In this document: positions 1,972-20,578 of the stretch, piece after piece
How the letters are laid out: each line of letters begins with the position of its first letter
Position numbering within the stretch: the stretch's first letter is position 1
DNA from: Candidatus Cloacimonadales bacterium
GTDB lineage: Bacteria; Cloacimonadota; Cloacimonadia; Cloacimonadales; JAIOQZ01
DNA: 64,000 nucleotides
Direction of reading: 5' to 3'
Assembly (NCBI GenBank): GCA_963674825.1
Contig: OY771587.1
Location: 224,001 to 288,000 of the forward strand
Translations under genes and position numbers: made by a program
The notes under the pieces: model-generated
What the model saw: the letters and a program-made list of their open reading frames with translations, nothing else
Told to the model about the DNA's origin: nothing
Database searches by the model: none

Positions 1972-2074
1972 GCCCTACTCAATAATTAATTTTCATATCA
2001 TTTATCACTCTAAACCTCTTTTGGACTTCTTTTTGCATGTATTGTGAATGGTTTCACACATCAAAGGAGGAATA

Positions 2075-5000
2075 ATGAACACGAAACTTGTTATTACCGC
2101 AACCCTGATCCTGTTACTGCTTGCGGTAGCAGGGTTTGCACAGGACCAGGGCGGACCTGACACTTTTGGTTACACCTGGAAAAACAGTAATGTGGATGAT
2201 GGACCAGTTTACACTTGGATTGAGCCCAACACCACCAATGATGCAGTAGCCTTGTACACGGAATTTGATGACGACGGAAACACACCCATGATTCCGCTGA
2301 ACTTTAATTTCCCCTACTACGGAAATGTCTATAGTGAAATCTGTATTGGAACGAACGGTATCCTCGGTTTTTCAATCGAAAATATGAGCCATCGTTTCTC
2401 ACAGGATTTCCCGGATGCAACCGAACCGGACAACATTATTGCATGGCTTTACACAGACTTGAATCCTCTCTATACCTGGGCGGATTCGCACTGTTACTTC
2501 GAAAATATCGAATACAACGATCAAGATGCATTCATGATCACATTCGTCGATTACGCGGAGTATTACTATTCCGGAACGTCTCCCGAATACACGGTCGACG
2601 TACAAATCATCCTTTCAGAGAGCGGTGACATCATTTTCAATTATCAGCGGATTGGCACATCGGTAAGCCTTGCCGACGTTTCGATCGGTATGGAGAACGC
2701 AGACGCGACCGATGGTCTTTGCTATGTTTGTGACGATGCAGGATTTTCGATTCCGGATAACTTCGCGATCGAATTCTATCGTCCGGCTGCAACCACGATT
2801 GACCTCGTTGCAAGCTCCATTTCTGGCAATACTACCCCGTCTGTTGGTGCAGACACCGATTACACGATCAGCATCACCAATCAGGGTGTCGAGACACAGT
2901 CCACCTACACCGTTTACTTAAAAGATGCAAACGGCAATGAGCTTGGCTCCGCTGCGGGAACTGAAATTGCTCAGTATGAGTCTGCCGATATCGTCGTAAC
3001 CTGGGCTCCAGAGACTGAAGGCGCGATGGGAATTTACGGTGAAGTAGTCGTTACCGGTGACGAAAACGATACCAATAACACGACCAATGAGATGATCGTA
3101 ACCGTACAACCTCAGGGTATTACCGTTATCTCTCTTGGTACTGATCAAACCACCTCGAACTACATGCCGTTCAACTACTACTATCGCAACAGCCTTTCCG
3201 AGACTATCTTCTATCCGGAGGAGCTCGGGCTTGAAGGCGGTGGCTTGCTCACCGCCATTCAGTTCTACAATCATTTCCCGACTGATGAAACTGTGATCGA
3301 CACAGTCGTCAATATCTGGGTCGGCGAAACAGAACTTAACGATCTCGCTGATGGCTACATTCCATCGACGGACCTCACACAGGTCTTCTCGGGGCTGGTC
3401 AATTTTCCCGCTGGTGAGAACGATATTCTGATCACATTTGATGAGCCCTACGAGTACACTGGTGGCAATCTCGTTATTATGACCCACAGACCATGGGATC
3501 CGAGTTATTATGACTCGAACTGCCATTTCTACTATTCGGTTACTGAAGAATATCCGAATCGTACAGCTTCGAGCCCGGATGACACAACCGAATTCGATCC
3601 GGCAAACCCGCCGACCGATGACCTCACACTGTACGATCGTATCCCAAATATCAGCCTGTTCTTCGACAGCTCTGCTGCAACCGGCGTGACTGGTTATGTA
3701 TATGACGACCAGACTTCACCGATTTCTGGCGCAACTGTCACGATGACCCCGGGTGATGTTGAATTCACAACCGGACCGAGTGGCGCATTCTCGTTCCTCG
3801 GAATTGAACCGGGTACCTATAGCTTTGAAGCTGTGGCTGAAGGCTATGTCACCGATACCATCGAAGACGTTGTCGTTACCGAAGGCGAAACCTCTGAGAT
3901 CACCTTCTTCCTCGATCCTGTTATGACCGTGACCATCACTGTCACAACAAACGCAGGTTCACCTGAAGGCGCAGAACTCGTTTTCAGCAATGGCACCGAT
4001 ACCTACGAAGAAACTGTGCCTGAAGATGGAATCATCCACTTCTATGAAATCGCAAACGGAACCTACACCCTCGGTATCACGCTCGAAGGTTTCAGCTACT
4101 ACTATGATGACAGCGTCGCTATCGACGGCATGACCGACATCGATGTAGAGCTCACAGAAACGACCGAACCTCCGACCAATCTCGAATGCGATGATGAAGC
4201 CTACTTCACATGGGAAGCTCCAGCAGATCCGGACATGCTTGTTCGCAGCACATCTGCCCGTAAGCAGATCGTCCAGAACGTAACCCGCAACACCAAGGGA
4301 ACCCGTCAGGAGATACTGGATCGTCCGCTTCAGAACTATCGTGTGTACCTTGATGGCACATTCTTATCCACTACCAACAACCTGAACTACCAGTTCGAAA
4401 CAGAAGGCATGACCGTAGGCCAGACCTACACCGCCGGTGTTTCGGCTCAATATGTCAGCGGCGAATCTGAAATCGTCACCGTTGACTTCATCTATGGTTA
4501 CGAAGAACTCTACGCGCCAATCAACGTCGCTTGCGATTCGCTTGGTCACCTGACCTGGGAATCCGGTCAACCGGCTTCTCTTCTTCGCAAGAACGCTGGT
4601 TCGAAAGACGTTCAGACTATGGATCGTGACTTCATCCAGTATCGCGTATATCTGGACGACGAATATGTCGACTGGACACTTGCTACCGAATTCACATTTG
4701 ATGACCTCGAAGTGAACACCACTTACACGGCTGGCGTTTCCGCGTTCTATACCGCCGGTAACTCCGAAATCATCGAAGTCGAATTCATCTATATGCCTGC
4801 AAGTACCAGCCAGACTGATGTGACTCCTGCGACCACCGCGATCGTGGGTAACTTCCCGAATCCGTTCAATCCGGAAACAACCATTCAGTTCTCCACCTCC
4901 AAGCCGGGCCATACTACCCTCACTATCTTCAACGTGAAGGGTCAGAAGGTGAAAACGCTTGTTGACGCGAACCTGGATGCAAACGTTCATAGCGTTATCT

Positions 5001-5110
5001 GGAATGGACAGGATAACAGCGGCAAGAATGTCACCAGTGGTGTCTACTACGCCGTTCTAAAAGCAGCTGGCGAAAATCCCGCTGTTCAGAAAATGATCCT
5101 GCTGAAGTAA
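2075..5110 (+). CDS. Large secreted protein: GGPDxFGY N-domain, CARDB, carboxypeptidase-regulatory-like and FN3-like modules, C-terminal FlgD-Ig/T9SS-type sorting domain
   Basis: AAGGAGG RBS and signal peptide. GDENDTNN (CARDB), PISGATV...GTYSF (CarboxypepD_reg-like), C-terminal NFPNPFNPETTI...IFNVKGQKV...WNG...KMILLK. Confidence 0.85.
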   Translation: MNTKLVITATLILLLLAVAGFAQDQGGPDTFGYTWKNSNVDDGPVYTWIEPNTTNDAVALYTEFDDDGNTPMIPLNFNFPYYGNVYSEICIGTNGILGFSIENMSHRFSQDFPDATEPDNIIAWLYTDLNPLYTWADSHCYFENIEYNDQDAFMITFVDYAEYYYSGTSPEYTVDVQIILSESGDIIFNYQRIGTSVSLADVSIGMENADATDGLCYVCDDAGFSIPDNFAIEFYRPAATTIDLVASSISGNTTPSVGADTDYTISITNQGVETQSTYTVYLKDANGNELGSAAGTEIAQYESADIVVTWAPETEGAMGIYGEVVVTGDENDTNNTTNEMIVTVQPQGITVISLGTDQTTSNYMPFNYYYRNSLSETIFYPEELGLEGGGLLTAIQFYNHFPTDETVIDTVVNIWVGETELNDLADGYIPSTDLTQVFSGLVNFPAGENDILITFDEPYEYTGGNLVIMTHRPWDPSYYDSNCHFYYSVTEEYPNRTASSPDDTTEFDPANPPTDDLTLYDRIPNISLFFDSSAATGVTGYVYDDQTSPISGATVTMTPGDVEFTTGPSGAFSFLGIEPGTYSFEAVAEGYVTDTIEDVVVTEGETSEITFFLDPVMTVTITVTTNAGSPEGAELVFSNGTDTYEETVPEDGIIHFYEIANGTYTLGITLEGFSYYYDDSVAIDGMTDIDVELTETTEPPTNLECDDEAYFTWEAPADPDMLVRSTSARKQIVQNVTRNTKGTRQEILDRPLQNYRVYLDGTFLSTTNNLNYQFETEGMTVGQTYTAGVSAQYVSGESEIVTVDFIYGYEELYAPINVACDSLGHLTWESGQPASLLRKNAGSKDVQTMDRDFIQYRVYLDDEYVDWTLATEFTFDDLEVNTTYTAGVSAFYTAGNSEIIEVEFIYMPASTSQTDVTPATTAIVGNFPNPFNPETTIQFSTSKPGHTTLTIFNVKGQKVKTLVDANLDANVHSVIWNGQDNSGKNVTSGVYYAVLKAAGENPAVQKMILLK

Positions 5111-5384: not shown

Positions 5385-5415
5385 AAAAAAAGCCCAAGGT
5401 GAAAACCCTGGGCTT
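5385..5415 (-). terminator. Rho-independent terminator of the ferredoxin/beta-barrel operon
   Basis: Minus strand aagcccaggg-ttttca-ccttgggct-tttttt, 21 nt after the stop at 5437. Confidence 0.8.
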
Positions 5416-5436: not shown

Positions 5437-6603
5437 TCAGAATCCGTATTCGATATTCAGGCTATGGACGGTCGTATCGTCCACGTACCTGGCATCGATA
5501 ACAGAAAAACCATAATAAACGCGAGTCTTGTATCGTGGCAGATAATAGGACAAATCGACACCCGCTTTGTATTCGTTCATGCGATCGCTGCCAAAATAGC
5601 GGTGATAAGCACCGTAGAGACTGAACGGACCAAAGTAGTACATCATCCCCATTCGAGCGATGGTAACATTCTCATTAAAGTGAGTCTTGATCGCGACCAG
5701 AAAGCGGTCGATGTGGTTGTCCTTATCGAAATTGAGATTATGCTGCAAGATACCCTCGTAGAAACCATTTCCCCACGCTTTCTGACTGTCGTCCTCGTTA
5801 TACCAGTATTGCTCTGTCACGCGGTTGATCATCATCCAATCGTGGAAATATTTACTGGTAATGCGCAGATCAGCCTCGCCGTACCAGGGCAGGTTTTCAT
5901 AAGCATCGGTGTTCACGGCAGCGAGCTCGATCTGCACCGTATGCACGGCATCGACCTTCTTCAGCATGCGGTTACCGAAACGAGTCTCGGTGTAATCGTA
6001 GGTATCGATATCGTTCATGTCGTTGAAATGCTGGACTTCCACAAACGGCTTCACCCAGTCGGTGAATTTATAGGCGATGCTCGCCTTGCCGTAACCGTCG
6101 CTGTCGATCCAGTAGTCTTCATCCTTGACCATCTCGTTGGTTGCGGCGTCGTACCGGTAACGGTCGTAGTAATTAGCCAGAAACTTCGCTTCCAGCATCG
6201 TTTCGAGTCCATTCCAGGTTCCAAACCAATCCAGTCCGCCGGAATATGAACTCTTCAGCAGAAACTGATCATCTGCGCCGACGATACGGGTCTCAAAATC
6301 GTCTTTGCTGTAGTTTTGCAGGCCGAACCAGGTGGAAATGTAGTAGTTGTCCGAGTATAAAGCGAGTCTCAGCTTATCACGAAGATAGGTACGCTTGTAA
6401 TCGCGTTCGAGTTCGTCATCGCTGTTACTTACCTTGGCATAAAGTGTGTTGGTCAGTTCAAGGCCGTCGCCACCGATACGCTCGAAATCGTACAAGCGTT
6501 CCATGAAGCCTTCGCGGCTATCCGATTCGATGCTGAGTGTTGCTTGCCGTGCGTAAAGAAAACCAGCACTCAGGATTGCGATGAGGATAATCAGCTTTCT
6601 CAT
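5437..6603 (-). CDS. Predicted outer-membrane beta-barrel protein (388 aa)
   Basis: Signal peptide MRKLIILIAILSAGFLYA. Alternating aromatic-rich strands; ends SLNIEYGF. ATGA overlap with the upstream gene. Confidence 0.7.
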   Translation of the reverse strand: MRKLIILIAILSAGFLYARQATLSIESDSREGFMERLYDFERIGGDGLELTNTLYAKVSNSDDELERDYKRTYLRDKLRLALYSDNYYISTWFGLQNYSKDDFETRIVGADDQFLLKSSYSGGLDWFGTWNGLETMLEAKFLANYYDRYRYDAATNEMVKDEDYWIDSDGYGKASIAYKFTDWVKPFVEVQHFNDMNDIDTYDYTETRFGNRMLKKVDAVHTVQIELAAVNTDAYENLPWYGEADLRITSKYFHDWMMINRVTEQYWYNEDDSQKAWGNGFYEGILQHNLNFDKDNHIDRFLVAIKTHFNENVTIARMGMMYYFGPFSLYGAYHRYFGSDRMNEYKAGVDLSYYLPRYKTRVYYGFSVIDARYVDDTTVHSLNIEYGF

Positions 6604-6872
6604 TGAATCGCATCCTTCGGGCAGATGGACACGCATTCGCCGCACTGTTTGCATCGTGTCTGGATGATCATCGGTTTCTCGCCATCGTATAGAATCGCGT
6701 TGTATGGGCATACATCAACGCAGCGTCCACATGCGATACAGGCGTCTTCATCGATCTGATAGAACGCGGACGGTGAAGCTGAGGTTGTGATAGTATCTTT
6801 CTTGTCGCAGGCAACGATGAACGCGCCTAATACAGCGATCATGATGAGCGAATAGATCATGAACTTTCTCAT
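6600..6872 (-). CDS. Lipoprotein 2x[4Fe-4S] ferredoxin-like protein
   Basis: Lipobox FIVA-C(DKKD); CIACGRCVDVCP and CKQCGECVSICP; ATGA overlaps at both ends. Confidence 0.85.
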   Translation of the reverse strand: MRKFMIYSLIMIAVLGAFIVACDKKDTITTSASPSAFYQIDEDACIACGRCVDVCPYNAILYDGEKPMIIQTRCKQCGECVSICPKDAIQ

Positions 6873-7105
6873 TTGATCGCTCCGAAGGTGCAGGTTGTCG
6901 TGCAGAGCTTGCAATCGATGCACTTCGATTCGTCGATCATGGCTTTACCAGAGTGAACTTGAATCGCCTTGACCGGGCAGGCTTTGACGCAGTCACCGCA
7001 ACCCGTACAGTCAATGCGCGATACTTCCGGCTTGTTCTGGACCGCGGCGATCAGCATCGTAAACGCGACCAGCAGAATCATCGAGATGATAGCAATACGT
7101 TTCAT
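6869..7105 (-). CDS. Signal-peptide-bearing 2x[4Fe-4S] ferredoxin-like protein
   Basis: MKRIAIISMILLVAFTMLIAA leader; CTGCGDCVKACP and CIDCKLCTTTCT; AAAGGA RBS. Confidence 0.85.
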   Translation of the reverse strand: MKRIAIISMILLVAFTMLIAAVQNKPEVSRIDCTGCGDCVKACPVKAIQVHSGKAMIDESKCIDCKLCTTTCTFGAIK

Positions 7106-7121
7106 GAGCATCCTTTATCGG

Positions 7122-10100
7122 TTAATTATTATAAGCAACAACACCCGGATCGATAGCGTTATAAGGGCAATAGGGCTCGCAATCGCCACAACCGATGCAG
7201 AGATCAGGATTGATCAGCTTGTAAGGGCCTGCATCGTATATCGCATCCTGATCGCAACGGTTGATACAGTTATTGCAATCATGGCAGCGATTCGTGGTGA
7301 TCTTATAAACAATTTTGCCGGCAGGAGAATTGGAGCAGCCGCTCACATTTCCGATCTCGTCGTAAGTCTTGATGGCGAAGTAGACAAGTTCGCCTTCGTC
7401 CAGACCGTTGATGTTGCATGTCTGCGTGGTTCCCGCGGCAGCAGGATCGGGCGGACTGGAGAACAGCGTCGCGCTTGCCCAGTTTGCTTCCGTGATGGCG
7501 GAACTGGAATATCGGATCTCATAATGATCGGCAGTTCCGGTTGCGCCGTCATCCCCGGGAGCGGTCCAACTGATACGGATGGTGGACATATTGACGTAGG
7601 TTGTCGTCACGGTCAGGTTATCGATTGTCTCAGGCGCAGTCGTGTCGTCTCCCAACGTCAAATCAACAATGTTGGATATCTGGGACTGGTTGTCTGCGTC
7701 GTCAGTTGTCTTGATTCCGAAATAATATTGAACATCGGATGACAAGCCGGTCACCGTATATTGCTGCTGCGTTCCCGCAACTGCCGGTGTCGGTGGATCA
7801 GACAGAAGTGTCGCGCTTCCCCAGTTTGTTTCATCGATAATCGTCGTAGCATAGCGGATTTCATAGCTTTCCGCAGTGCCAGTGTTTCCATCATCGCCAG
7901 GCGCAGTCCATGAAAGGAGCGCATCGTTTCCAGATTGTATAGCTTCCAGATCGTCAATATCTGCCGGTGCGGTGGTATCGAATATTCCGGATTCTGCAAC
8001 GTTGGAGATCTGGGCAATATTACCGCCGTTGTCGGTAGCTTTTATCGCGAAATAGAGGGTGACATCCTGTTCCGGTGAAACGACCGTATATTGTTGCGTC
8101 GTTCCAGCTTCGAGCGGATCAGGCGGATTATCGAGCGTCTCGGCATCTTGCCAATTGCTTTCTGTAATCTGCTGCGTGGACATGCGGATCTCATACGATT
8201 CAGCGGTGCCGGTATCGGCATCGTCGCCTGGTGCGGTCCACTGAAGCGTGATATCCGAACCATCGACTGCTGCTTGAAGATCGGCGATCGCAGAAGGCGC
8301 AGTGTCGTCCACAATTTCCGCATTCGCAATATTGGAAAGAGAAGAAACGTTCGCAGCGTCGTCAAATGCCTTGATCGCGAAAAAATAACTTGTATTATCA
8401 TTGGCGCTAAGCCACTCGAATTGCTGCTGTGTTCCGGATTCTTCCGGTGATGGCAGGCCTGTGAGTAGTGTTGCGTTTGTCCAGTTATCGTCATTGATAG
8501 AACTTTCCGATACGCGGATTTCATAGTACGCCGCGGTTCCAGTATCCTCATCGTCACCCGTAGCGGTCCAGGTCAGCATTATCGACTGTCCCTGGGCGAC
8601 AGCGGCGAGGTCGTCGATCTGTGAAGGAGCAGTTGTGTCCGCGTTCGAGTTGGTCTCACCCTGTGCGATATTGGATAAGTTGCTTACGTTCTCCATCTCG
8701 TCCATAGCCTTGATGGCAAACCAGTACGCGGTTTCCGGTTCAAGTCCGGTTACGATTATACTTTCCTGAGTCCCTGCAGGTTGAGGCGTAATCATCTCGT
8801 CAATCGCGCCGATACTGTTCCAGTTGCTGTCGGTTATCGGTTCGGTATAGACTTTGATGATATAGCTTGAAGCTGTACCGGTATCGCCGTCATCGCCGGG
8901 AGCTGTCCAGCGGATTTGCGCCGTGGAAGCCGACGTGTTGGTAACCGTAAGATCATCGACCGCAGAAGGTGCGATGTGATCAGGGATGGCGGATGTTTCA
9001 GCCGATACGACGTTGGATAGCGTCGATTGGTTCTCGCTATTATCGATCGCCTTAACGGCAAAGTAGTAGGTTGTGCTGCTTGTAAGGCCGGTAACCATGA
9101 GCATTTCCGATACTCCAGCCATTTGTGGATCGAGATCGTTGTCGAATGTAGTTGCCTGGGCCCAGTTCTGTGGCGTGATTTCCGATGTGGAATAGCGCAC
9201 GATGTACGCATCTGCTGTACCTGTTGTTCCATCATCTCCCACGGCTGTCCAGCGAAGCGAGATCGATTCCATCTCGATAGTCTCGACTTGCAGCGTGGTA
9301 ATCTGCGCCGGAGCAGTTGTATCCGGGCTGAAAGACGCCTGTGCGTTGTTGGAGACACCTGATTCGTTATCACTGCTGTCGTAAGCACGGATGGCGAAGT
9401 AGTGAATCGCTTGATCAGGCATATCGGTAACCATGAAGCTCTCGGGTGTACCGGCTTCGGACGGGGTGATATCGCTTTCGACCAAAGTTGCTTGCAACCA
9501 TGTCGCATCAGTGATGGCACTGCTCGCATAGCGAATCTCGTAGCGATCTGCGGTGCCTTCGTCGCCATCATCGCCGGGAGCAGTCCAAAGCAGCGTGATC
9601 TGATCCTCGTCGGAAAGCGCTGTAAGGTCTTCGATCGCTGCCGGAGCTGTTTCATCCGCTGCTTCGTCGGAGATCATGACGGAAATAGTCTGCGACTTCG
9701 CATATTGACCGCAATCGTCGAACGCGTGCACTGCAACCTGAACCGTCTGCTGCGGTGTCAGGCCAGAGATATGCCAGGTTTCGGTGAGACCGGCAATCTT
9801 GGGTGGATTGGGAGCAAAATTGTTTTGGATCGCGGTTCCGCTGGCGGTTTTAAGTATGAGCTCATAGCGCCAGGCAATACCCGAAGTGGAGTCATCGCCG
9901 GTTGCAGTGAACTGGATATCCAGCGTTCCGATTGAATCGGAGATTGCGCACAAATCGGTTATTGGAGAAGGCGCGATGGTATCTTCTGTGTATGTAAACG
10001 CGTCGTATTGGCATTGGAAATCGGTAATACAGCGCATGCACTGGACGCATTTATCAGGATCGATGGTCGCTGTCCCGCGGACTTCATCAATGTAGATCGC

Positions 10101-10298
10101 ATTCTGCGGACAATGGAATTCTTCGATACACTCGTAGCAGGCAGTACAATTCGAGTATTCGATGCGGACATCGCCATCGTTACTTGCGTTCTTGCTTATA
10201 TCATCGGTGCAGTAAAAGAGGAGCAATGAAAGAAACGGTAGCAGGAACAGCAGTAAACGATGTTTACGGTTTGCATGCTGAGAAGTTTGTTTGCGCAT
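7122..10298 (-). CDS. Lipoprotein: ferredoxin domain - 8x fibronectin type III-like repeats - ferredoxin domain (1058 aa)
   Basis: Hydrophobic leader ending LLFY-C(TDD). N-terminal [14 protein letters not shown] and [13 protein letters not shown]. Eight DxxAP...WTAxGDD...Y.IR repeats. C-terminal [11 protein letters not shown] and [12 protein letters not shown]. Confidence 0.88.
7320..9983 (-). repeat. Eight tandem ~110-aa FN3-like coding repeats
   Basis: Repeat starts DTIAP, DETAP, DTTAP, DHIAP, DTTAP, DDTAP, DTTAP, DTTAP, each with (W/F)TA(P/T/V)GDD. Confidence 0.85.
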
Positions 10299-10301
10299 GA
10301 C

Positions 10302-10835
10302 CTACTCCCCGGCAACCTCAACCGCGATAGCATCAACCGGACAAGCCTGGTCGCAGATGCCGCACTGGATACACTTTCCCTGATCGATCTGCGCGATACC
10401 CTGCTTCATGCTGATAGCTCCTGTAGGGCATTTTTTCTTGCAGATCTTGCAGCCGATGCACTTGTCTTCCTGGACCGCGTAAAGCTTGGATGCCTCTTCT
10501 TCTTGCGCAGGTACCTGAACGGAAGAGGTCTTCTTTTCCACCGGAACCGAGGTACTGTCCGGCTTTGCAGCCGTGGTATCCGCAGCAGCGGTTTCTTCAA
10601 CAACCGAGATCGCCGCAACCGGGCATGCCTTCACGCAAAGTCCGCACTGGATGCACTTTTCACGATCGATTATGGCTTTGCCGTCAACCATCGTAATGGC
10701 CTTCACCGGACATTTCTGTACGCAGAGTGTGCAGCCGATGCACTTGTCGGGATCGACCTTGTGGTATGTTGCCGAAGTGGCCATGAGCATCACGACCATA
10801 AGCGTTGCCAGCAGCATAATAATATATTTCTTCAT
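10302..10835 (-). CDS. Signal-peptide-bearing polyferredoxin (four [4Fe-4S] motifs, two domains, flexible linker)
   Basis: AAGGAG RBS; MKKYIIMLLATLMVVMLMATSA leader. CIGCTLCVQKCP, CIQCGLCVKACP, CIGCKICKKKCP, CIQCGICDQACP. A/T/S/P/E-rich linker. Confidence 0.88.
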   Translation of the reverse strand: MKKYIIMLLATLMVVMLMATSATYHKVDPDKCIGCTLCVQKCPVKAITMVDGKAIIDREKCIQCGLCVKACPVAAISVVEETAAADTTAAKPDSTSVPVEKKTSSVQVPAQEEEASKLYAVQEDKCIGCKICKKKCPTGAISMKQGIAQIDQGKCIQCGICDQACPVDAIAVEVAGE

Positions 10836-10942
10836 TCTTCTACTCCTTCGTATGAATCGAGTCCATTTATTACATAGGGACAAACAATGCAAGAAAAAAC
10901 CGTGCCGAAATGCGGATATTACTGGAAAATAACGCGGAATTG

Positions 10943-13141
10943 TCAGTCGTCGATGATCAACTCGCCCTCGAGCAGCGTCTTCCACAAACCCGGGATTCTC
11001 ATCTTACCGTCGTGCGTATCGAAGGGTTTCGCCTCCAGGTCCCTGACCATGCTGAGGTAGATCGTCGGATCTGCGGTGCCGTCGTAGTGTCCGTCCGGCG
11101 TATAGGCAAGCCACTGCTTCCCATTTTTCACGTAGATGAGCGACGCCAGATGTTCACCCGTCGTGGAATCGAACAGGAAATACTCGCCGAGTAACCCGTT
11201 CGTGACAATCCTGCTACCGTCTTCGGTGAAGTGGGGATGGAGCTCATAGCCTTCTTCGCCAAAATCACGCGATAGATAGCTATTATACTGAAGCGAATCC
11301 AAATACGTCAGAGAATCGCCCCGATAGATGTTGCCATATCCGACGATCTTGTCGAAATCCCTGGAAAAGGCGAAATTATCCCAACTACCAAGGTTGCAAT
11401 GACGCTCTGGATTCATGCGATCGAAGAGGCAGTAATAGGATATCGTTTCCGAAAGGTCTGTCGCCAGGACAAGCGAACCGCCATTCATGATTTTGTATGG
11501 ATAGTAGCTGTATTCAAAGTATCTTAATTGGTTTGTTTTTTTACCATACATATCGTTTTCAATTTTGTAATAGAGTGGTTTTGCCTGCATGGAATCCAGG
11601 CATGTACCGGTTTCGATATCCCAGCGCTTGTAATATCCAGGCTCTATTATCGTATCCGCCGAATAAGTAAGAAGAATATTGGCTTTATCCGTAAAGCAAA
11701 CCATCCGGCTTGCTTCAGGCAATGTTCGATAAGGCGTATCCCATTCACCATCTTTGTAGATAACGGTGCTATCGGCTTCAGCAATTGCATGCCACTGCTG
11801 GTCAATGCTTTGCCCTGAGTAATTACCGAAATATCGATGTTCCTCAGATAAAAAGTTCGAATATACCAGATATTCATCATTGCTCTCATGGGCGGAATAA
11901 TCGTACTCGTCCGGCAAACTGGACGGCGTAATTGTACCTCTATCATTGTCGGTGAATATCTCGATTTCCATACTGTCGGTAAAACGAATAGAAGCCCATG
12001 GATTATCATCAGGTATGAATTCTGTATATCTACCAGAGCATTCCATTGTTGCAAGCAATGAGAGTTCGTTGGTTGTGGCATTGTAACGGTAAATCTCATT
12101 GTCTATGGTCTTAATGAGAACCTCGTCCGGATCATTGGTTGGATATGCGGAAGATACAGCCGTGATGATTCCTTTCATGCAGTCTACCTGATTCGTTTCG
12201 GTATCAATCACCACAAATGGATATTCGAATGTGCGCCAATTATACCATTCGGATGGTGGCGCAACGAAGATCTTTCTTCCATTGCTTAACGGGATGTTTA
12301 TTGTCCTGTCAGTCCAGGGAATATCATATACGCCTTCGCGTGCTCCCGTCTCGATATCATAGAGCTCAAGTTTCTTGTCATGCGTGTTTATGCATTTGCC
12401 TATGTTTATCAGTTCCGGATTATTTTCACCCCAAGAGTTTACTCGTACAGGAGAAAGGGCCTTCTTCTTGAAGTTCCAGAATCCCCTTTCTTGATTTACA
12501 TTTATTGGTCGAAAATCACCCTTGAGACGGTAGTATTTGTATCTGGCCATTCCATATGACTGACTCAGATCAACCTGCTCCAGCGTTTCACGTGCCGTTG
12601 TGTGCAGCAAAATATTTCCCCGTCCAAGTGATATTATTTCGTTCAGATCAGATGAAAGGATGAGCCTTCTATTGATATCTATATAGGGAAACGTTTTCTC
12701 AGTAAACGTTGTATCGGTTGATCGCAGCTTTGTCTGGTCTCTATCAATACGCTGGGCATAATACATTTCACCTTCCTTGAAAATGAGGACGCTAACATTG
12801 AAATACTTACTTTCCCCTGTTTCAAGATTGCGTTTTACGACCCATGCCACATCTTGATCATGAATAATGTAAAGACTTATTGAGTCCGGTGAGAACTGGA
12901 TATCTTGTATTATCGTCGTCGAATCATAGCCGGGTGGATAGCTGAAGGTTTGGATCATGTGTTTGAAATCACTCGTCCAGATCTGAAATGAATGACCATT
13001 CGAGATCGCTACCAGTTTTCCATCCGGGCTGAAAGCGAGCCATCCAATCCTAATTGAACGGTTGGGCGATACGACCCAGTCGGATGCGATAATGGGCGTA
13101 AGAACGCACAGCAGTAGCACAAATGTGAGGATTCTTTTCAT
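10943..13141 (-). CDS. Secreted WD40/beta-propeller repeat protein
   Basis: Signal peptide; LAFSPDGKLVA, IQFSPD and FAFSRD blades; C-terminal WLAYTPDGHYDG. Confidence 0.75.
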   Translation of the reverse strand: MKRILTFVLLLCVLTPIIASDWVVSPNRSIRIGWLAFSPDGKLVAISNGHSFQIWTSDFKHMIQTFSYPPGYDSTTIIQDIQFSPDSISLYIIHDQDVAWVVKRNLETGESKYFNVSVLIFKEGEMYYAQRIDRDQTKLRSTDTTFTEKTFPYIDINRRLILSSDLNEIISLGRGNILLHTTARETLEQVDLSQSYGMARYKYYRLKGDFRPINVNQERGFWNFKKKALSPVRVNSWGENNPELINIGKCINTHDKKLELYDIETGAREGVYDIPWTDRTINIPLSNGRKIFVAPPSEWYNWRTFEYPFVVIDTETNQVDCMKGIITAVSSAYPTNDPDEVLIKTIDNEIYRYNATTNELSLLATMECSGRYTEFIPDDNPWASIRFTDSMEIEIFTDNDRGTITPSSLPDEYDYSAHESNDEYLVYSNFLSEEHRYFGNYSGQSIDQQWHAIAEADSTVIYKDGEWDTPYRTLPEASRMVCFTDKANILLTYSADTIIEPGYYKRWDIETGTCLDSMQAKPLYYKIENDMYGKKTNQLRYFEYSYYPYKIMNGGSLVLATDLSETISYYCLFDRMNPERHCNLGSWDNFAFSRDFDKIVGYGNIYRGDSLTYLDSLQYNSYLSRDFGEEGYELHPHFTEDGSRIVTNGLLGEYFLFDSTTGEHLASLIYVKNGKQWLAYTPDGHYDGTADPTIYLSMVRDLEAKPFDTHDGKMRIPGLWKTLLEGELIIDD

Positions 13142-13294
13142 GACCCGATCTCCTGTGAAAAGCGATGCCTGATATGTACTTTTATCACAGTATGTGTCAA
13201 GCGGAATTAAGGCGCCACAAGAAAAAAAACCTTGCCCGTATGCCGCGTTCCGATATTTTGTCATCAAAATCACAAAGGATGGTTGAAACTAGGT

Positions 13295-15061: not shown

Positions 15062-16090
15062 ATGCGCACAACCATCACCATCGCTCTGTTATTGCTCGTT
15101 TCGGCTATCTTCGCTTATCCCACACTACAGGGAGAAGGAATAACCAAGTTCACCGAATATGCAGAAGATCATCTTGAACTTATTGATGAAATTACCCTCG
15201 ACGACAAGTCTGTCGTAGTGCGCCGCGCACCGGCAACGAAACATGCCCTTGGCGAAGTGACGATCGAGAAAAGGAAAAAAGAACGAGAATATGTATTGAC
15301 CAAATCTTCAGACCTCGGCGTTACCCTGCGGAAATCCGAGGATCATCAATATTGGGAATGGTATGACGCCAATAACAATCTGTTGAATCGCTGCCCGGCC
15401 AACCCATACATATCGAAAATTGTGCCTGTAAACACCAATGGCTACTGGCTCATGTTTGAAGAGCCAAAAGAAGATCCATACGATTTTATCGAAGAACAGT
15501 ACAATTACGATGGTCCCTTGATCTATGCTGCAGATTTCAGATGCAATGTCGAATCCAGCAACTTCCCCAGCCAGTCCGGTGTCGTTATTTTCGACCAGGA
15601 TGGCAATAAAATGACGCAGGTTGAGCTTGCAGGAGGAAGCATCACAGACATAGATATTAGTCCTCTTGGTAAATATTTCAGGGTTGCAGCCTGGCCAAAT
15701 ATTGTTATAATGACCATCAAAGGGAGTATTGTCTGGCAGAGCGATACAGAGGGCTCACGAACGATAACCTTTTCCCCAAATGAGGAGCTGGCGTTTCTTG
15801 GTGTTGGTCAATGTAAGGTACTGGATTTATCAAATGGGAAATATCTCGCCAATATCCCATGCTTTTTCGAACAAACGACCTCAGTTGCAATTAGCGACAA
15901 GGAGGCTGGGATTGTCGCAGTACCAGGATATAACGAAATTCTTGTTTTCGATATATGGGCCGGGAAACAGATCGCAAGATTCAGACAAAAAGGAACAAAT
16001 ATTCAGCTTTCAGGTGATGGACGGCTCCTATCATTCAGAGGGATAGGGAAAGTTGTTACATATCGGCTTGATGGAATAGATGGAGAATAA
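15062..16090 (+). CDS. Secreted hypothetical protein with beta-propeller-like C-half, paralog copy 1
   Basis: AGGAGG RBS, signal peptide; ISPLG/FSPNE/LSGDG blade-like motifs; N-half nearly identical to 19544..20578. Confidence 0.8.
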   Translation: MRTTITIALLLLVSAIFAYPTLQGEGITKFTEYAEDHLELIDEITLDDKSVVVRRAPATKHALGEVTIEKRKKEREYVLTKSSDLGVTLRKSEDHQYWEWYDANNNLLNRCPANPYISKIVPVNTNGYWLMFEEPKEDPYDFIEEQYNYDGPLIYAADFRCNVESSNFPSQSGVVIFDQDGNKMTQVELAGGSITDIDISPLGKYFRVAAWPNIVIMTIKGSIVWQSDTEGSRTITFSPNEELAFLGVGQCKVLDLSNGKYLANIPCFFEQTTSVAISDKEAGIVAVPGYNEILVFDIWAGKQIARFRQKGTNIQLSGDGRLLSFRGIGKVVTYRLDGIDGE

Positions 16091-16197: not shown

Positions 16198-16436
16198 CAA
16201 ACCGAAAAATATTGACACCTGAAATATACCATTTCCTCATCTGCACAAGAGGAGAATATCATGCGCACAACCACCACCATCGCTCTATTGCTGTTCGTTT
16301 CGGCTATCTTCGCTTATCCCACACTACGGGGAGACGGAATAACCAAGTTCACCGAATATGCAGAAGATCATCTTGAACTTATTGATGAAATTACCCTCGA
16401 CGACAAGTCTGTCGTAGTGCGCCGCGCACCGGCAAC
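16144..16436 (+). repeat. ~293-bp direct repeat, copy A (copy B at 19427..19719)
   Basis: Near-identical sequence at a constant offset of 3283 bp, covering the minigene tail, TTGACA, RBS and the paralog 5' end. Confidence 0.9.
16261..16436 (+). pseudogene. 5' fragment of paralog copy 2, interrupted
   Basis: Matches copies 1 and 3 up to RRAPAT, then runs into unrelated sequence (ORF stops at 16602). Confidence 0.8.
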
Positions 16437-16967
16437 TCAAGCAAGATTTCGGATGGGAGCAAATTCGCCTTTTACAGTACCACAGGCTGAAAAATCTGAA
16501 TGCGATTTTCTGGCTCGCTGTATGTTTTCTTTACTCGATGATTACGGATGTGCCCGGATTACAATCGATAATGATGTCGGCATTTATCGAACGAAAAAGT
16601 GACTGGAAGCGCCGTGGATTCGGTATCTACTACAGGTTAACCTACGTCATTTCGGAGTGTTTCCTATGGTTTGACTGGTACTGGATAAAGCCCGATAAAG
16701 GAAGGTGGAAAGAGCATTTACAGCTCAAGGTCAGGTTCGAATGAAAAAATGGGGGTATACCTGATTGTGTAAGAAAAAGATTGACAAACATCATGAGCTG
16801 GATTCATTTTAGAAGTTGTCTCATGGCAACGTTCCATGACAAAGCAGTTTTGCAAAATGGGGTGAAGTTGTGATTCGCAGCCTTCGATTCGATGAGGAAC
16901 AATTTGTTGGGATTAACACCAACCGTTGAAACGAAATAACTAATTTTCAATAAACAAGGAGAAAATT

Positions 16968-18583: not shown

Positions 18584-19373
18584 AGACCTCGGCGTAACCC
18601 TGCGGAAATCGGAAGATTTGCAATACTGGGAATGGTACGACGCCAATAACAATCTGTTAAATCGCTGCCCGATCAATCCGTACATCTCCGAAATCGTGCC
18701 TGTCAACACCAATGGGTACTGGCTCATGTTTGAAGAACCCAAAGAAGATCCATACGATTTTATCGAAGAACAGTACAATTACGATGATCCCTTGATATAT
18801 GCTGCAGATTTCCGTTACAACGTCGAGTCCAGCAATTTCGCCAGCCAGTCCGGGGTCGTTATCTACGACTCGTACGGAAACAAAATGACACAGGTTGAGC
18901 TCGGGTGTGGGAATGTCAGTTCTGTTAAATACAGTCCATCAGGCAATTACTTCATTGTTGCAGCACATCCCAAGAACTTCCTCATGAGTATCGACGGACA
19001 CATTATACGAAAGTTCCAGAAAAGTGGGGGCATTTCCATCGTGTTTTCCCCCAGCGAAGAACTGGCAGTGCTCGCCCCTCCTTTTCCGTATGTAATCGAT
19101 CTCGAGACGGGGGAAATACTTGCCGAGATTTTTTCTTCATACGGATCATCAACGGTTGCTATCAGTGACAGAGAGGCTGGAATTGTAGCGGTTAAAAACG
19201 GTGGTCGTGGAAGTGGTATCCAAATATTTGATATATGGAAGGGAAAACAAATTGCACATTTCAAGCGAGATGGCACATATATTCAGCTCTCAGGTGATGG
19301 ACGGCTTATCTCATTCAAATCAAAAGGAGATATAATGCGTTCATACCTACTTGATGGCATAAGAGGAGAATAA
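18584..19373 (+). pseudogene. 3' fragment of paralog copy 2
   Basis: Homology to copy 1 resumes at agacctcggcg (DLGVTLRKSED) and is open to the stop at 19373; no signal peptide or RBS. Confidence 0.78.
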
Positions 19374-19480: not shown

Positions 19481-19719
19481 CAAACCGAAAAATATTGACA
19501 CCTGAAATATACCATTTCCTCATCTGCACAAGAGGAGAATATCATGCGCACAACCACCACCATCGCTCTGTTTTTGCTCGTTTCCGCCATCTTCGCTTAT
19601 CCCACACTACGGGGAGAAGGAACAACCAAGTTCACCGAATATGCAGAAGATCATCTTGAACTTATTGATGAAATTACCCTCGACGACAAGTCTGTCGTAG
19701 TGCGCCGCGCACCGGCAAC
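19427..19719 (+). repeat. ~293-bp direct repeat, copy B
   Basis: Matches 16144..16436. Confidence 0.9.
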
Positions 19720-20578
19720 GAAACATGCCCTTGGCGAAGTGACGATCGAGAAAAGGAAAAAAGAACGAGAATATGTATTGACCAAATCTTCAGACCTCGG
19801 CGTTACCCTGCGGAAATCCGAGGATCATCAATATTGGGAATGGTATGACGCCAATAACAATCTGTTGAATCGCTGCCCGGCCAACCCATACATATCTGAA
19901 ATTGTGGACGTCAACACCAATGGCTACTGGCTCATGTTTGAAGAGCTAAAAGAAGATCCATACGATTTTATCGAAGAACAGTACGATTTCGATGGTCCCT
20001 TGATATATGCTGCAGATTTCAGATACAATGTCGAATCCAGCAACTTCCCCAGCCAGTCCGGGGTCGTTATTTACGACCAGAATGGCAATAAAATGACGCA
20101 GGTTGACCTTGAGTGTGGAGATGTAAGTTATATTGAAATGAGTCCTTCTGGAAACTACTTCATTGTTGCAGCACACCCCAAGACCTTCCTTATGAGTATA
20201 GATGGACTCATTAAAAGAGAATTCATGAAAAGCGGAGGAGTTTATATCAGTTTCTCTCCCAGCGAAGATCTGGCAGTACTTGGTCCTCCCCTGCCGTATG
20301 TAATCGATCTTGAGACAGGCGAAATACTTGCCAAGATTCATGGCACTTACGATTCATCAACGATTGCGATCAGCGACAAAGATGCTGGAATTGTTGCAGT
20401 GAGAGGAAATATCGGAATTCTTGTTTTCGATATATGGGCTGAGAAACAGATCGCAAGATTCAGACAAAACGGAACGAATATTCAACTCTCAGGCGATGGG
20501 CGGCTCCTATCATTCAGAGGGATAGGGAAAGTTGTTACATATCGGCTTGATGGAATAGATGGAGAGCAGTCAGAGTAA
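19544..20578 (+). CDS. Secreted hypothetical protein, paralog copy 3
   Basis: AGGAG RBS, signal peptide; homologous to 15062..16090. Confidence 0.8.
   Translation: MRTTTTIALFLLVSAIFAYPTLRGEGTTKFTEYAEDHLELIDEITLDDKSVVVRRAPATKHALGEVTIEKRKKEREYVLTKSSDLGVTLRKSEDHQYWEWYDANNNLLNRCPANPYISEIVDVNTNGYWLMFEELKEDPYDFIEEQYDFDGPLIYAADFRYNVESSNFPSQSGVVIYDQNGNKMTQVDLECGDVSYIEMSPSGNYFIVAAHPKTFLMSIDGLIKREFMKSGGVYISFSPSEDLAVLGPPLPYVIDLETGEILAKIHGTYDSSTIAISDKDAGIVAVRGNIGILVFDIWAEKQIARFRQNGTNIQLSGDGRLLSFRGIGKVVTYRLDGIDGEQSE

Follow-up and report, generated by a model that had tools for sequence, protein, structure and literature searches.

The five genes described here lie on the minus strand of a 64,000-nucleotide (nt) stretch of DNA, hereafter the window, from contig OY771587.1 of Candidatus Cloacimonadales bacterium (positions 224,001–288,000 of the forward strand; assembly GCA_963674825.1), whose 3.89-Mb genome is held in one contig and is 99.57% complete. 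Coordinates without a prefix are window positions, and genome coordinates are marked as such. The genes are co-oriented in the order P0001, P0002, P0003, P0004 and P0005 (10835–5437) and closely packed, with gaps of 3 nt (P0001/P0002) and 16 nt (P0002/P0003) followed by four-base start/stop overlaps at the P0003/P0004 and P0004/P0005 junctions. The first four (10835–6600) encode six 2[4Fe-4S]-type ferredoxin domains recognized by Pfam (Fer4) and by their complete cysteine motifs (four each in P0001 and P0002, two each in P0003 and P0004). A previous sequence-only reading of this DNA had placed the four ferredoxin genes correctly and left out the fifth (6603–5437), which encodes a predicted outer-membrane beta-barrel. 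A ribosome-binding site (10843–10849, minus strand) precedes the P0001 ATG at 10835 by 7 nt, and the promoter scan scored no sigma-70-like promoter in the gap upstream. An intrinsic-terminator-like hairpin of 11 pairs and a T run (5390–5415, minus strand) closes the operon; such sites were about as frequent in shuffled sequences, and the support for the hairpin is its position.

P0001 (10302–10835; 177 amino acids, aa) has a Sec-type leader, two 2[4Fe-4S]-type domains and an Ala/Thr/Glu-rich linker. P0002 (7122–10298; 1058 aa) is a predicted lipoprotein (lipid cysteine Cys30) in which eight fibronectin-III repeats separate an N-terminal ferredoxin (residues 51–97; 10008–10148) from a distal, C-terminal one (residues 1005–1045; 7164–7286). 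Cysteine spacing in the N-terminal domain is variant, the fourth cysteine being preceded by two additional residues; an AlphaFold2 model of this terminus had low confidence across the ferredoxin and was set aside. The two core members of the operon are smaller: P0003 (6869–7105; 78 aa) joins a Sec-type leader to one 2[4Fe-4S]-type domain, and P0004 (6600–6872; 90 aa) is a predicted lipoprotein (Cys22) with one such domain. Among orthologues with a usable ATG start, all eight ligand cysteines of P0003 are invariant (19/19 aligned), as are the eight ligands and Cys22 of P0004 (18/18) and Cys30 and the eight N-terminal ligands of P0002 (17/17). The invariant lipid cysteine ends the hydrophobic stretch in both lipoproteins (P0004, 18/18; P0002, 17/17), where the neighboring residues vary; most of the orthologues have ordinary lipoboxes.

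The leaders of the four ferredoxin genes bear directly on where their clusters are loaded. Iron-sulfur (Fe-S) clusters are described as being inserted in the cytoplasm, which forces the holoproteins to leave by the twin-arginine translocation (Tat) pathway (as outlined in PMC10924467). The sequence-only reading had noticed Sec-type or lipoprotein leaders instead, and all four are indeed present, each pairing a basic n-region with a hydrophobic stretch free of charges. The Tat consensus is absent from all of them (0/4), and no in-frame upstream extension supplies it, so that a misplaced start does not explain its absence. A 56-codon open stretch upstream of P0001, for example, contains arginine pairs without the Tat consensus and lacks conservation in five orthologues. 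Charge polarity is N-in/C-out, unlike that of the host RnfB anchor, which argues against uncleaved anchors holding the domains in the cytoplasm. Furthermore, among the 51 six-frame open reading frames (ORFs) of the genome with a CxxCxxCxxxC motif, a leader stands directly before a ferredoxin only in the four operon proteins and in an unlinked paralogue, P0009 (by our own reading of the ORFs). This arrangement is more than chance, and it recurs across the phylum.

The same features extend to 183 orthologous leaders. None has the Tat consensus (0/183), a bare arginine pair occurs in 7 of the 183 versus 6 of 86 control leaders, and a heuristic count gives a net-positive n-region in 179. The orthologous leaders resemble those of the controls, which are 86 type-IX-tailed proteins of the host genome, and differ from the host RnfB anchor; the latter has neither a basic n-region nor a lipobox and lies in an rnf operon elsewhere. 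Leader classes combine our own heuristics with conservation and are partly circular, the starts having been picked for their hydrophobic stretch, and two small Sec-type rows were mis-sorted among the lipoproteins. The survey omits 30 ferredoxin-bearing ORFs in which no ATG leader was found, a mixed set of NapH-like proteins, unrelated enzymes, contig ends and non-ATG starts.

The genetic background of the host is consistent with this picture. Following a check proposed in the sequence-only reading, we searched the host genome for tat genes and found no TatC and no TatA (controls, 11/14), and no leader was Tat-like by pattern. TatC was found in 9 of the 232 Cloacimonadota genomes of our phylum survey (one of them below the cut-off) and in 2 of the 111 that carry a barrel related to P0005. 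The absence of Tat is a background of the phylum and not a correlate of the cassette, because nearly the whole phylum is without Tat. Lgt, LspA, SprA, PorV and ApbE are all present in the host genome. The invariant lipobox cysteine and the type-IX-tailed paralogue independently support a location of the ferredoxin domains outside the cytoplasm, and we regard their export as very likely from the sequences. Sec substrates cross the membrane unfolded, which means that any clusters would have to be built outside; loading beyond the cytoplasm, the central proposal of the sequence-only reading, is thus probable.

The residues after the lipid cysteine had also been likened to surface-export signals of the Bacteroidota, of which K-(D/E)2 and SDD-type versions are defined in sections of PMC5080379. 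The likeness holds in part for the large lipoproteins and not for the small ones. K-(D/E)2 at position +3 is missing from both groups (0/29 large, 0/54 small), P0002 and P0004 included. An acidic residue occupies +3 in 28 of the 29 large lipoproteins, and nine have the C-[ST]-acidic-acidic pattern that resembles the SDD-type signal, which P0002 fits. Among the 54 small lipoproteins, the +2 to +6 stretch is net negative in three and the SDD-type signal never appears, P0004 being no exception.

The barrel gene that closes the operon (P0005; 5437–6603; 388 aa) begins within the stop overlap with P0004 and its product ends in a C-terminal Phe. AlphaFold2 modeled it from a 19-row alignment as a 20-strand barrel without a plug (predicted local distance difference test score, pLDDT, 86.8; predicted template-modeling score, pTM, 0.74). 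By barrel geometry, the model would have a C-alpha diameter of 35–38 Å, with room for a 55-residue domain. P0005 matched no Pfam or NCBIfam family, and its structural matches (Foldseek, VIA) were generic barrels only, TonB receptors among them (TM 0.5–0.6, Z 17, root-mean-square deviation (rmsd) about 5 Å), so that no family was assigned. Its Atlas features were those of unnamed and alginate-export-like barrels, recognized below threshold. A complex prediction of the barrel with P0004 scored 0.48 versus 0.00 for the best of three controls (at least 82% of contacts shared between runs; pLDDT of the partner 63 or more) and lends weak support to a contact between the two, without specifying an interface. 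In calibration, scores that passed at or below 0.60 came from 18 of the 157 solved complexes and, among 215 mismatches, from both of the two that passed; such passes are more often wrong than right unless the pair is likely beforehand.

Relatives of P0005 (clade 1) occur in 20 of the 232 genomes. A profile search returned 43 clusters, including a second barrel clade (clade 2) in 91 other genomes; the two clades never co-occur and together cover 111 of the 232. Ahead of the barrel come a small Sec-type ferredoxin and a small lipoprotein ferredoxin, in 18 of 19 clade-1 loci and in all 20 clade-2 loci, which were picked from the 91 for their long contigs. The gene order also extends to a remote barrel, P0051, the weakest profile match (E 7.6e-4; hhalign 97%), which was chosen only by score and has only marginal matches in the 232 phylum genomes. 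On its one recovered metagenome contig (L185, 6.7 kb), three leader-bearing ferredoxins lie directly upstream of the barrel (2265–4667 for ferredoxins and barrel together). L185 probably comes from a lineage outside Cloacimonadota; neither a DsbD_2 gene nor a NapH-like gene was found within its 6.7 kb. Reduced or rearranged cassettes were also seen, with a truncated barrel behind the polyferredoxin (L037), the barrel moved upstream (L130), or the polyferredoxin directly followed by DsbD_2 (L085, L087 and L101). Some operons have an extra member with a leader, a beta-rich domain of about 90 aa and a ferredoxin, the only part that Pfam names (L028:84–662, L032:341–862, L033:5256–5777 and L067–L072). 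An Atlas search with P0004 returned a cluster of 76-aa ferredoxins commonest in Fermentibacterota (score 0.87), which may be a similar exported ferredoxin in another phylum.

Two membrane proteins recur with these genes. One is a NapH-like protein (PF12801), which besides its cluster motifs has an invariant His/Cys site; it is encoded in 172 of the 232 genomes and, in the host, away from the operon (genome 3058124–3058903). In 15 of 20 loci the next gene after the NapH-like one encodes a P0001-type polyferredoxin (with a visible leader in 13), and P0001 is likely the periplasmic partner of this membrane protein. The other is a DsbD_2 protein (PF13386) with four invariant cysteines, found in 94 of the 232 genomes and in 77 of the 111 with a barrel. 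It follows the barrel in 16 of 20 clade-2 loci, and a barrel lies upstream in 61 of the 80 DsbD_2-centered loci (63 when two filtered out by the script are counted); these and other operon-content counts over 80 loci cover 80 of 99 relatives. A structure search found no solved relative of this DsbD_2 subfamily. The NapH-like and DsbD classes are both described as transmembrane electron carriers in parts of PMC8238504. In the host genus, the DsbD_2 protein (genome 3413436–3414803, minus strand, locus L044; also L024) has a duplicated C-terminal domain joined by a linker with three cysteines, which might bind an additional metal or cluster.

Cytochrome c assembly is nearly missing from the phylum. 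The host genome has no cytochrome c assembly protein (PF01578), a family present in 5 of the 232 phylum genomes, and no ORF with several CxxCH motifs except for one DnaJ-like ORF with two. A role of DsbD_2 in cytochrome c maturation was ruled out by the lack of PF01578. DsbB was not found in the host genome, and without it the ferredoxin thiols should stay free. The host genome also had no SufBD match, in contrast to each of the 14 control genomes, and apparently relies for Fe-S assembly on two genes, for a leaderless NifU and, beside it, a NifS-like protein; this pair lies about 8 kb from the DsbD_2 gene and outside its operon. In alkaline aqueous solution, iron, sulfide and cysteine can combine into Fe-S clusters, according to results presented in PMC8505563.

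Another ferredoxin that probably faces outward is encoded by P0009 (genome 683901–683119, minus strand; L043:3120–3902), which is unlinked to the operon and combines a leader, a ferredoxin, a carboxypeptidase-regulatory-like domain and a type IX tail. P0009 has the features of type IX cargo, a leader and a C-terminal sorting domain, in a genome with SprA and PorV; its Por_Secre_tail score is 27.5 bits (cut-off 27), compared with 49.7 for P0055, another ferredoxin with this tail. In 11 of the 80 loci the operon itself includes a type-IX-tailed ferredoxin, and in these 11 the large lipoprotein is never seen upstream. In a tree of ferredoxin domains, 13 of 14 distal domains of the P0002 type and all 10 tailed domains form one branch (23 rows; support 99/96), a grouping drawn from only 51 columns with an unsettled bootstrap and two mislabeled rows. 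Profile cross-scoring was mixed, with 7 of 10 tailed domains scoring best against the distal class and only 4 of 14 distal domains scoring best against the tailed class. Two predicted routes thus seem to carry one ferredoxin subfamily, to which the distal domain of P0002 belongs, outward. The fibronectin spacer of the P0002 type varies in length, from 3 to 14 motif repeats in 29 orthologues. The host genome has 99 ORFs with a type IX tail motif, and four flagellin-like genes lie 3–8 kb from P0009.

The linker of P0004 also contains a Thr-Ser-Ala-Ser motif (6774–6785, minus strand) that resembles the [S/T]GA[S/T]-like site at which ApbE attaches flavin, as described in portions of PMC8238504. 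Of 40 homologous linkers, 14 have the motif, the canonical Gly being present in some; among lipoprotein-like ORFs of the host genome the count is 1 of 101. It also appears in the first loop of 10 of 39 clade-2 barrels, although in two of the ten the upstream Asp is missing and the match may be accidental. The motif is never in both the lipoprotein and the barrel of one locus (52 loci; barrel starts are imperfect). ApbE is encoded in the host by a gene unlinked to the operon, and RnfG and RnfD need this enzyme too. Because the homologues are kin, the motif is a lead for a redox function only. The clade-2 barrels with the motif include P0038, P0041–P0045, P0049 and P0050 (loci L091, L099, L100, L102, L105 and L110); these outer-membrane barrels may be flavinylated and have no Pfam relation to DUF3570.

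A heme-free electron path through the cell envelope is the best functional reading of these sequences, and we give it about an even chance. It is favored because the barrel, the lipoprotein carrier, the periplasmic carriers and the NapH-like protein match the layouts of porin-cytochrome and NapGH systems, here in cells unable to make c-type cytochromes. The chains would cross the inner membrane unfolded through Sec and receive their clusters outside the cytoplasm. There, the cysteines would be kept reduced by the lack of DsbB, the small domains would assemble their clusters in the periplasm out of Fe2+ and sulfide, and DsbD_2, where present, could supply reductant, sulfur or metal. The NapH-like Fe-S protein of the inner membrane would exchange electrons with periplasmic P0001, and P0003 would carry them to the outer-membrane lipoprotein P0004, which is weakly predicted to dock on the barrel and in some lineages may hold a covalent flavin mononucleotide (FMN). 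Outside, a distal ferredoxin, either carried by P0002 on its fibronectin stalk or, as P0009, exported by type IX secretion, would contact a partner cell, a mineral or a soluble carrier. In its full form, as a porin-ferredoxin conduit in at least two lineages with outside loading by self-assembly or a DsbD_2- or NapH-assisted step, covalent flavin in some members and direct electron exchange with partners or minerals, the proposal is tentative and somewhat less likely than not.

Several observations weigh against an electron path of this kind or against outside loading. The system is modular: the inner pair and the outer triple are joined by DsbD_2 in some genomes only, and the distal ferredoxin varies. 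This modularity weakens the idea of one obligate chain. The inner pair of NapH-like protein and polyferredoxin is kept in 11 of the 14 barrel-less genomes examined and is not bound to the barrel; DsbD_2, which 34 of the 111 barrel genomes lack and 17 genomes without a barrel match have, is not a universal loading factor. In the host, the NapH-like, DsbD_2 and P0009 genes are all unlinked to the operon. With no cofactor site in its fibronectin stalk, P0002 cannot be a continuous wire; its distal domain would need to swing or to work by itself. In 40 of 52 loci, neither lipoprotein nor barrel has the flavinylation-like motif. One UbiA-family gene lies beside a polyprenyl-synthase-like gene, which does not establish a quinone pool. 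Polarity favors N-in in only 3 of 11 tailed ferredoxins, albeit by a crude measure. As for loading, the exported Fe-S scaffold that the sequence-only reading had suggested looking for was not found in the host genome, the sole NifU_N gene being leaderless, and sulfide in the cytoplasm of E. coli does not assemble into clusters directly on apoproteins but still depends on IscU as scaffold (PMC13015791).

The operon could instead serve to take up or handle iron, sulfur or some other metal, with surface ferredoxins catching Fe2+, sulfide or FeS clusters, the barrel admitting them, the periplasmic ferredoxins carrying or storing them, and the NapH-like and DsbD_2 proteins reducing and importing them. 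The NapH-like protein, which we take to be linked by family to CcoG, has its invariant His/Cys site to offer for such a role, as DsbD_2 has its four invariant cysteines. CcoG, a membrane protein with ferredoxin-like cysteine motifs, is a cupric reductase (described in PMC8267372). A bait-like distal domain on a stalk and a genome with only NifS/NifU and no SufBD point the same way. Yet the barrel has no plug and its TonB-receptor matches are generic, TonB, Feo and ABC metal-uptake genes were not seen as regular neighbors in the inspected loci (in which no family scan was made), and every small domain keeps all eight ligands with canonical spacing; the flavinylation-like motif would also be needless. 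We consider uptake unlikely. A redox or oxygen buffer and sensor, in which exported clusters are sacrificial targets or oxidant reporters recharged by the NapH-like protein, would exploit the oxygen lability of small clostridial-type clusters and would explain why many copies are exposed outward and why a distal domain is held far from the membrane on a cofactor-free stalk. It is, however, quite improbable: no kinase, regulator or peroxidase is a conserved neighbor in the inspected loci, scavenging hardly explains a dedicated barrel with a fixed gene order, and recharging by NapH is electron transfer itself. Scavenging and sensing were the alternatives offered by the sequence-only reading, and they are not the best fit because the barrel, NapH-like and DsbD_2 partners had escaped it.

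A more modest role would be the supply of reductant within the periplasm, where electrons would go only to envelope enzymes or Cys-rich secreted proteins and ferredoxins would replace thioredoxin-like carriers. The frequency of DsbD_2 behind clade-2 barrels and in barrel genomes speaks for it, as does the persistence of the inner pair in barrel-less genomes; the barrel and the type-IX-tailed ferredoxin are left unexplained, though, and the operon has no conserved periplasmic enzyme, which makes this role rather improbable as well. The topology itself could also have been misread. RnfB is an N-out anchor with its ferredoxin domain in the cytoplasm, and the operon's domains might sit on similar uncleaved anchors or be exported folded by a route other than Tat, with clusters loaded in the usual way. 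Some P0001-type leaders do resemble uncleaved anchors, and basic residues flank both sides of the leader in some small-ferredoxin orthologues, though the n-side is the larger in 46 of 56. Such a topology would keep the textbook rule for Fe-S proteins (as stated in PMC10924467). We regard it as highly unlikely: the host RnfB lacks the basic n-region seen in nearly all of the orthologous leaders, an invariant lipobox cysteine and a type IX tail would be senseless on the cytoplasmic face, an N-in anchor would still leave the domain outside, and there is no linked candidate for a folded-protein exporter. Hitchhiking on a Tat partner was ruled out by the lack of TatC in the genome.

Comparison with known systems returns us to the heme-free electron path. 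Like the Shewanella MtrCAB-type porin-cytochrome complexes, the operon sets a barrel gene beside periplasmic and lipoprotein redox carriers. Unlike them, its carriers are 2[4Fe-4S]-type ferredoxins and not multiheme cytochromes, cytochrome c assembly is missing, and the barrel has no Pfam match; MtrB has 26 strands, compared with the 20 predicted in P0005, and its alignment with P0005 (6r2q_B; Z 15.3, rmsd 5.9) is tied with those of many unrelated barrels. The succession of a PF12801 membrane protein and a leader-bearing polyferredoxin recalls NapGH, MauMN and NosR-type systems. However, NapG is exported by Tat, whereas the partner here has a Sec-type leader in Tat-less genomes, with no linked terminal reductase and with a barrel module added. 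RnfB has in common a hydrophobic N-terminus followed by ferredoxin motifs, reflected in weak NCBIfam rnfB scores, and differs in the leader features noted above.

Other extracytosolic redox systems overlap in part. In ApbE-flavinylated systems (PMC8238504), the cofactor is added after export, as would be the case here, and the membrane partners are of the same classes, with a flavinylation-like motif in some lipoproteins and barrels here; the carriers described in those sections of PMC8238504 bind FMN or have DUF2271 or DUF3570 domains, and exported ferredoxins are not among them. Furthermore, apbE is unlinked here and most loci lack the motif. Tat-exported ferredoxins such as HybA, HmcB and the tail-anchored ferredoxin/cytochrome b pairs covered in PMC10924467 also work on the outer side of the inner membrane but need a twin-arginine leader or a Tat partner, and the host has neither. 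The proposed system would work like a porin-cytochrome conduit and a NapGH pair but fails the defining tests of both, heme and Tat. Limited literature searches found no description of Sec-exported ferredoxins or of such a conduit, though the gene-cluster table of PMC8238504 could list one.

The cassette itself is real and conserved, and the export of its ferredoxins is very likely from their sequences. The proteins are small and easily expressed, making the rule of cytoplasmic insertion and Tat export for Fe-S proteins directly testable. If the conduit exists, it would add a third chemistry for extracellular electron transfer beside hemes and flavins. It would be held by Cloacimonadota, which are abundant in digesters and anoxic waters and nearly without cytochrome c assembly, and genome surveys that count multiheme cytochromes would miss it. 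In passages of PMC8892533 and PMC7382037, pili are the sole route suspected for direct interspecies electron transfer by Cloacimonadota.

Two further genes flank the operon. Converging on it from the plus strand is a gene for a 1020-aa type-IX-tailed protein (2048–5110) that also flanks the operon in L021 and L022. Upstream, on the minus strand, lies a gene for a 776-aa beta-propeller-like protein (10943–13273). Further along the window, four plus-strand genes (15062–16090, 16261–16602, 18618–19373 and 19544–20578) are tandem paralogues of a secreted protein of about 340 aa; their N-termini are near-identical and two of them are fragmentary.

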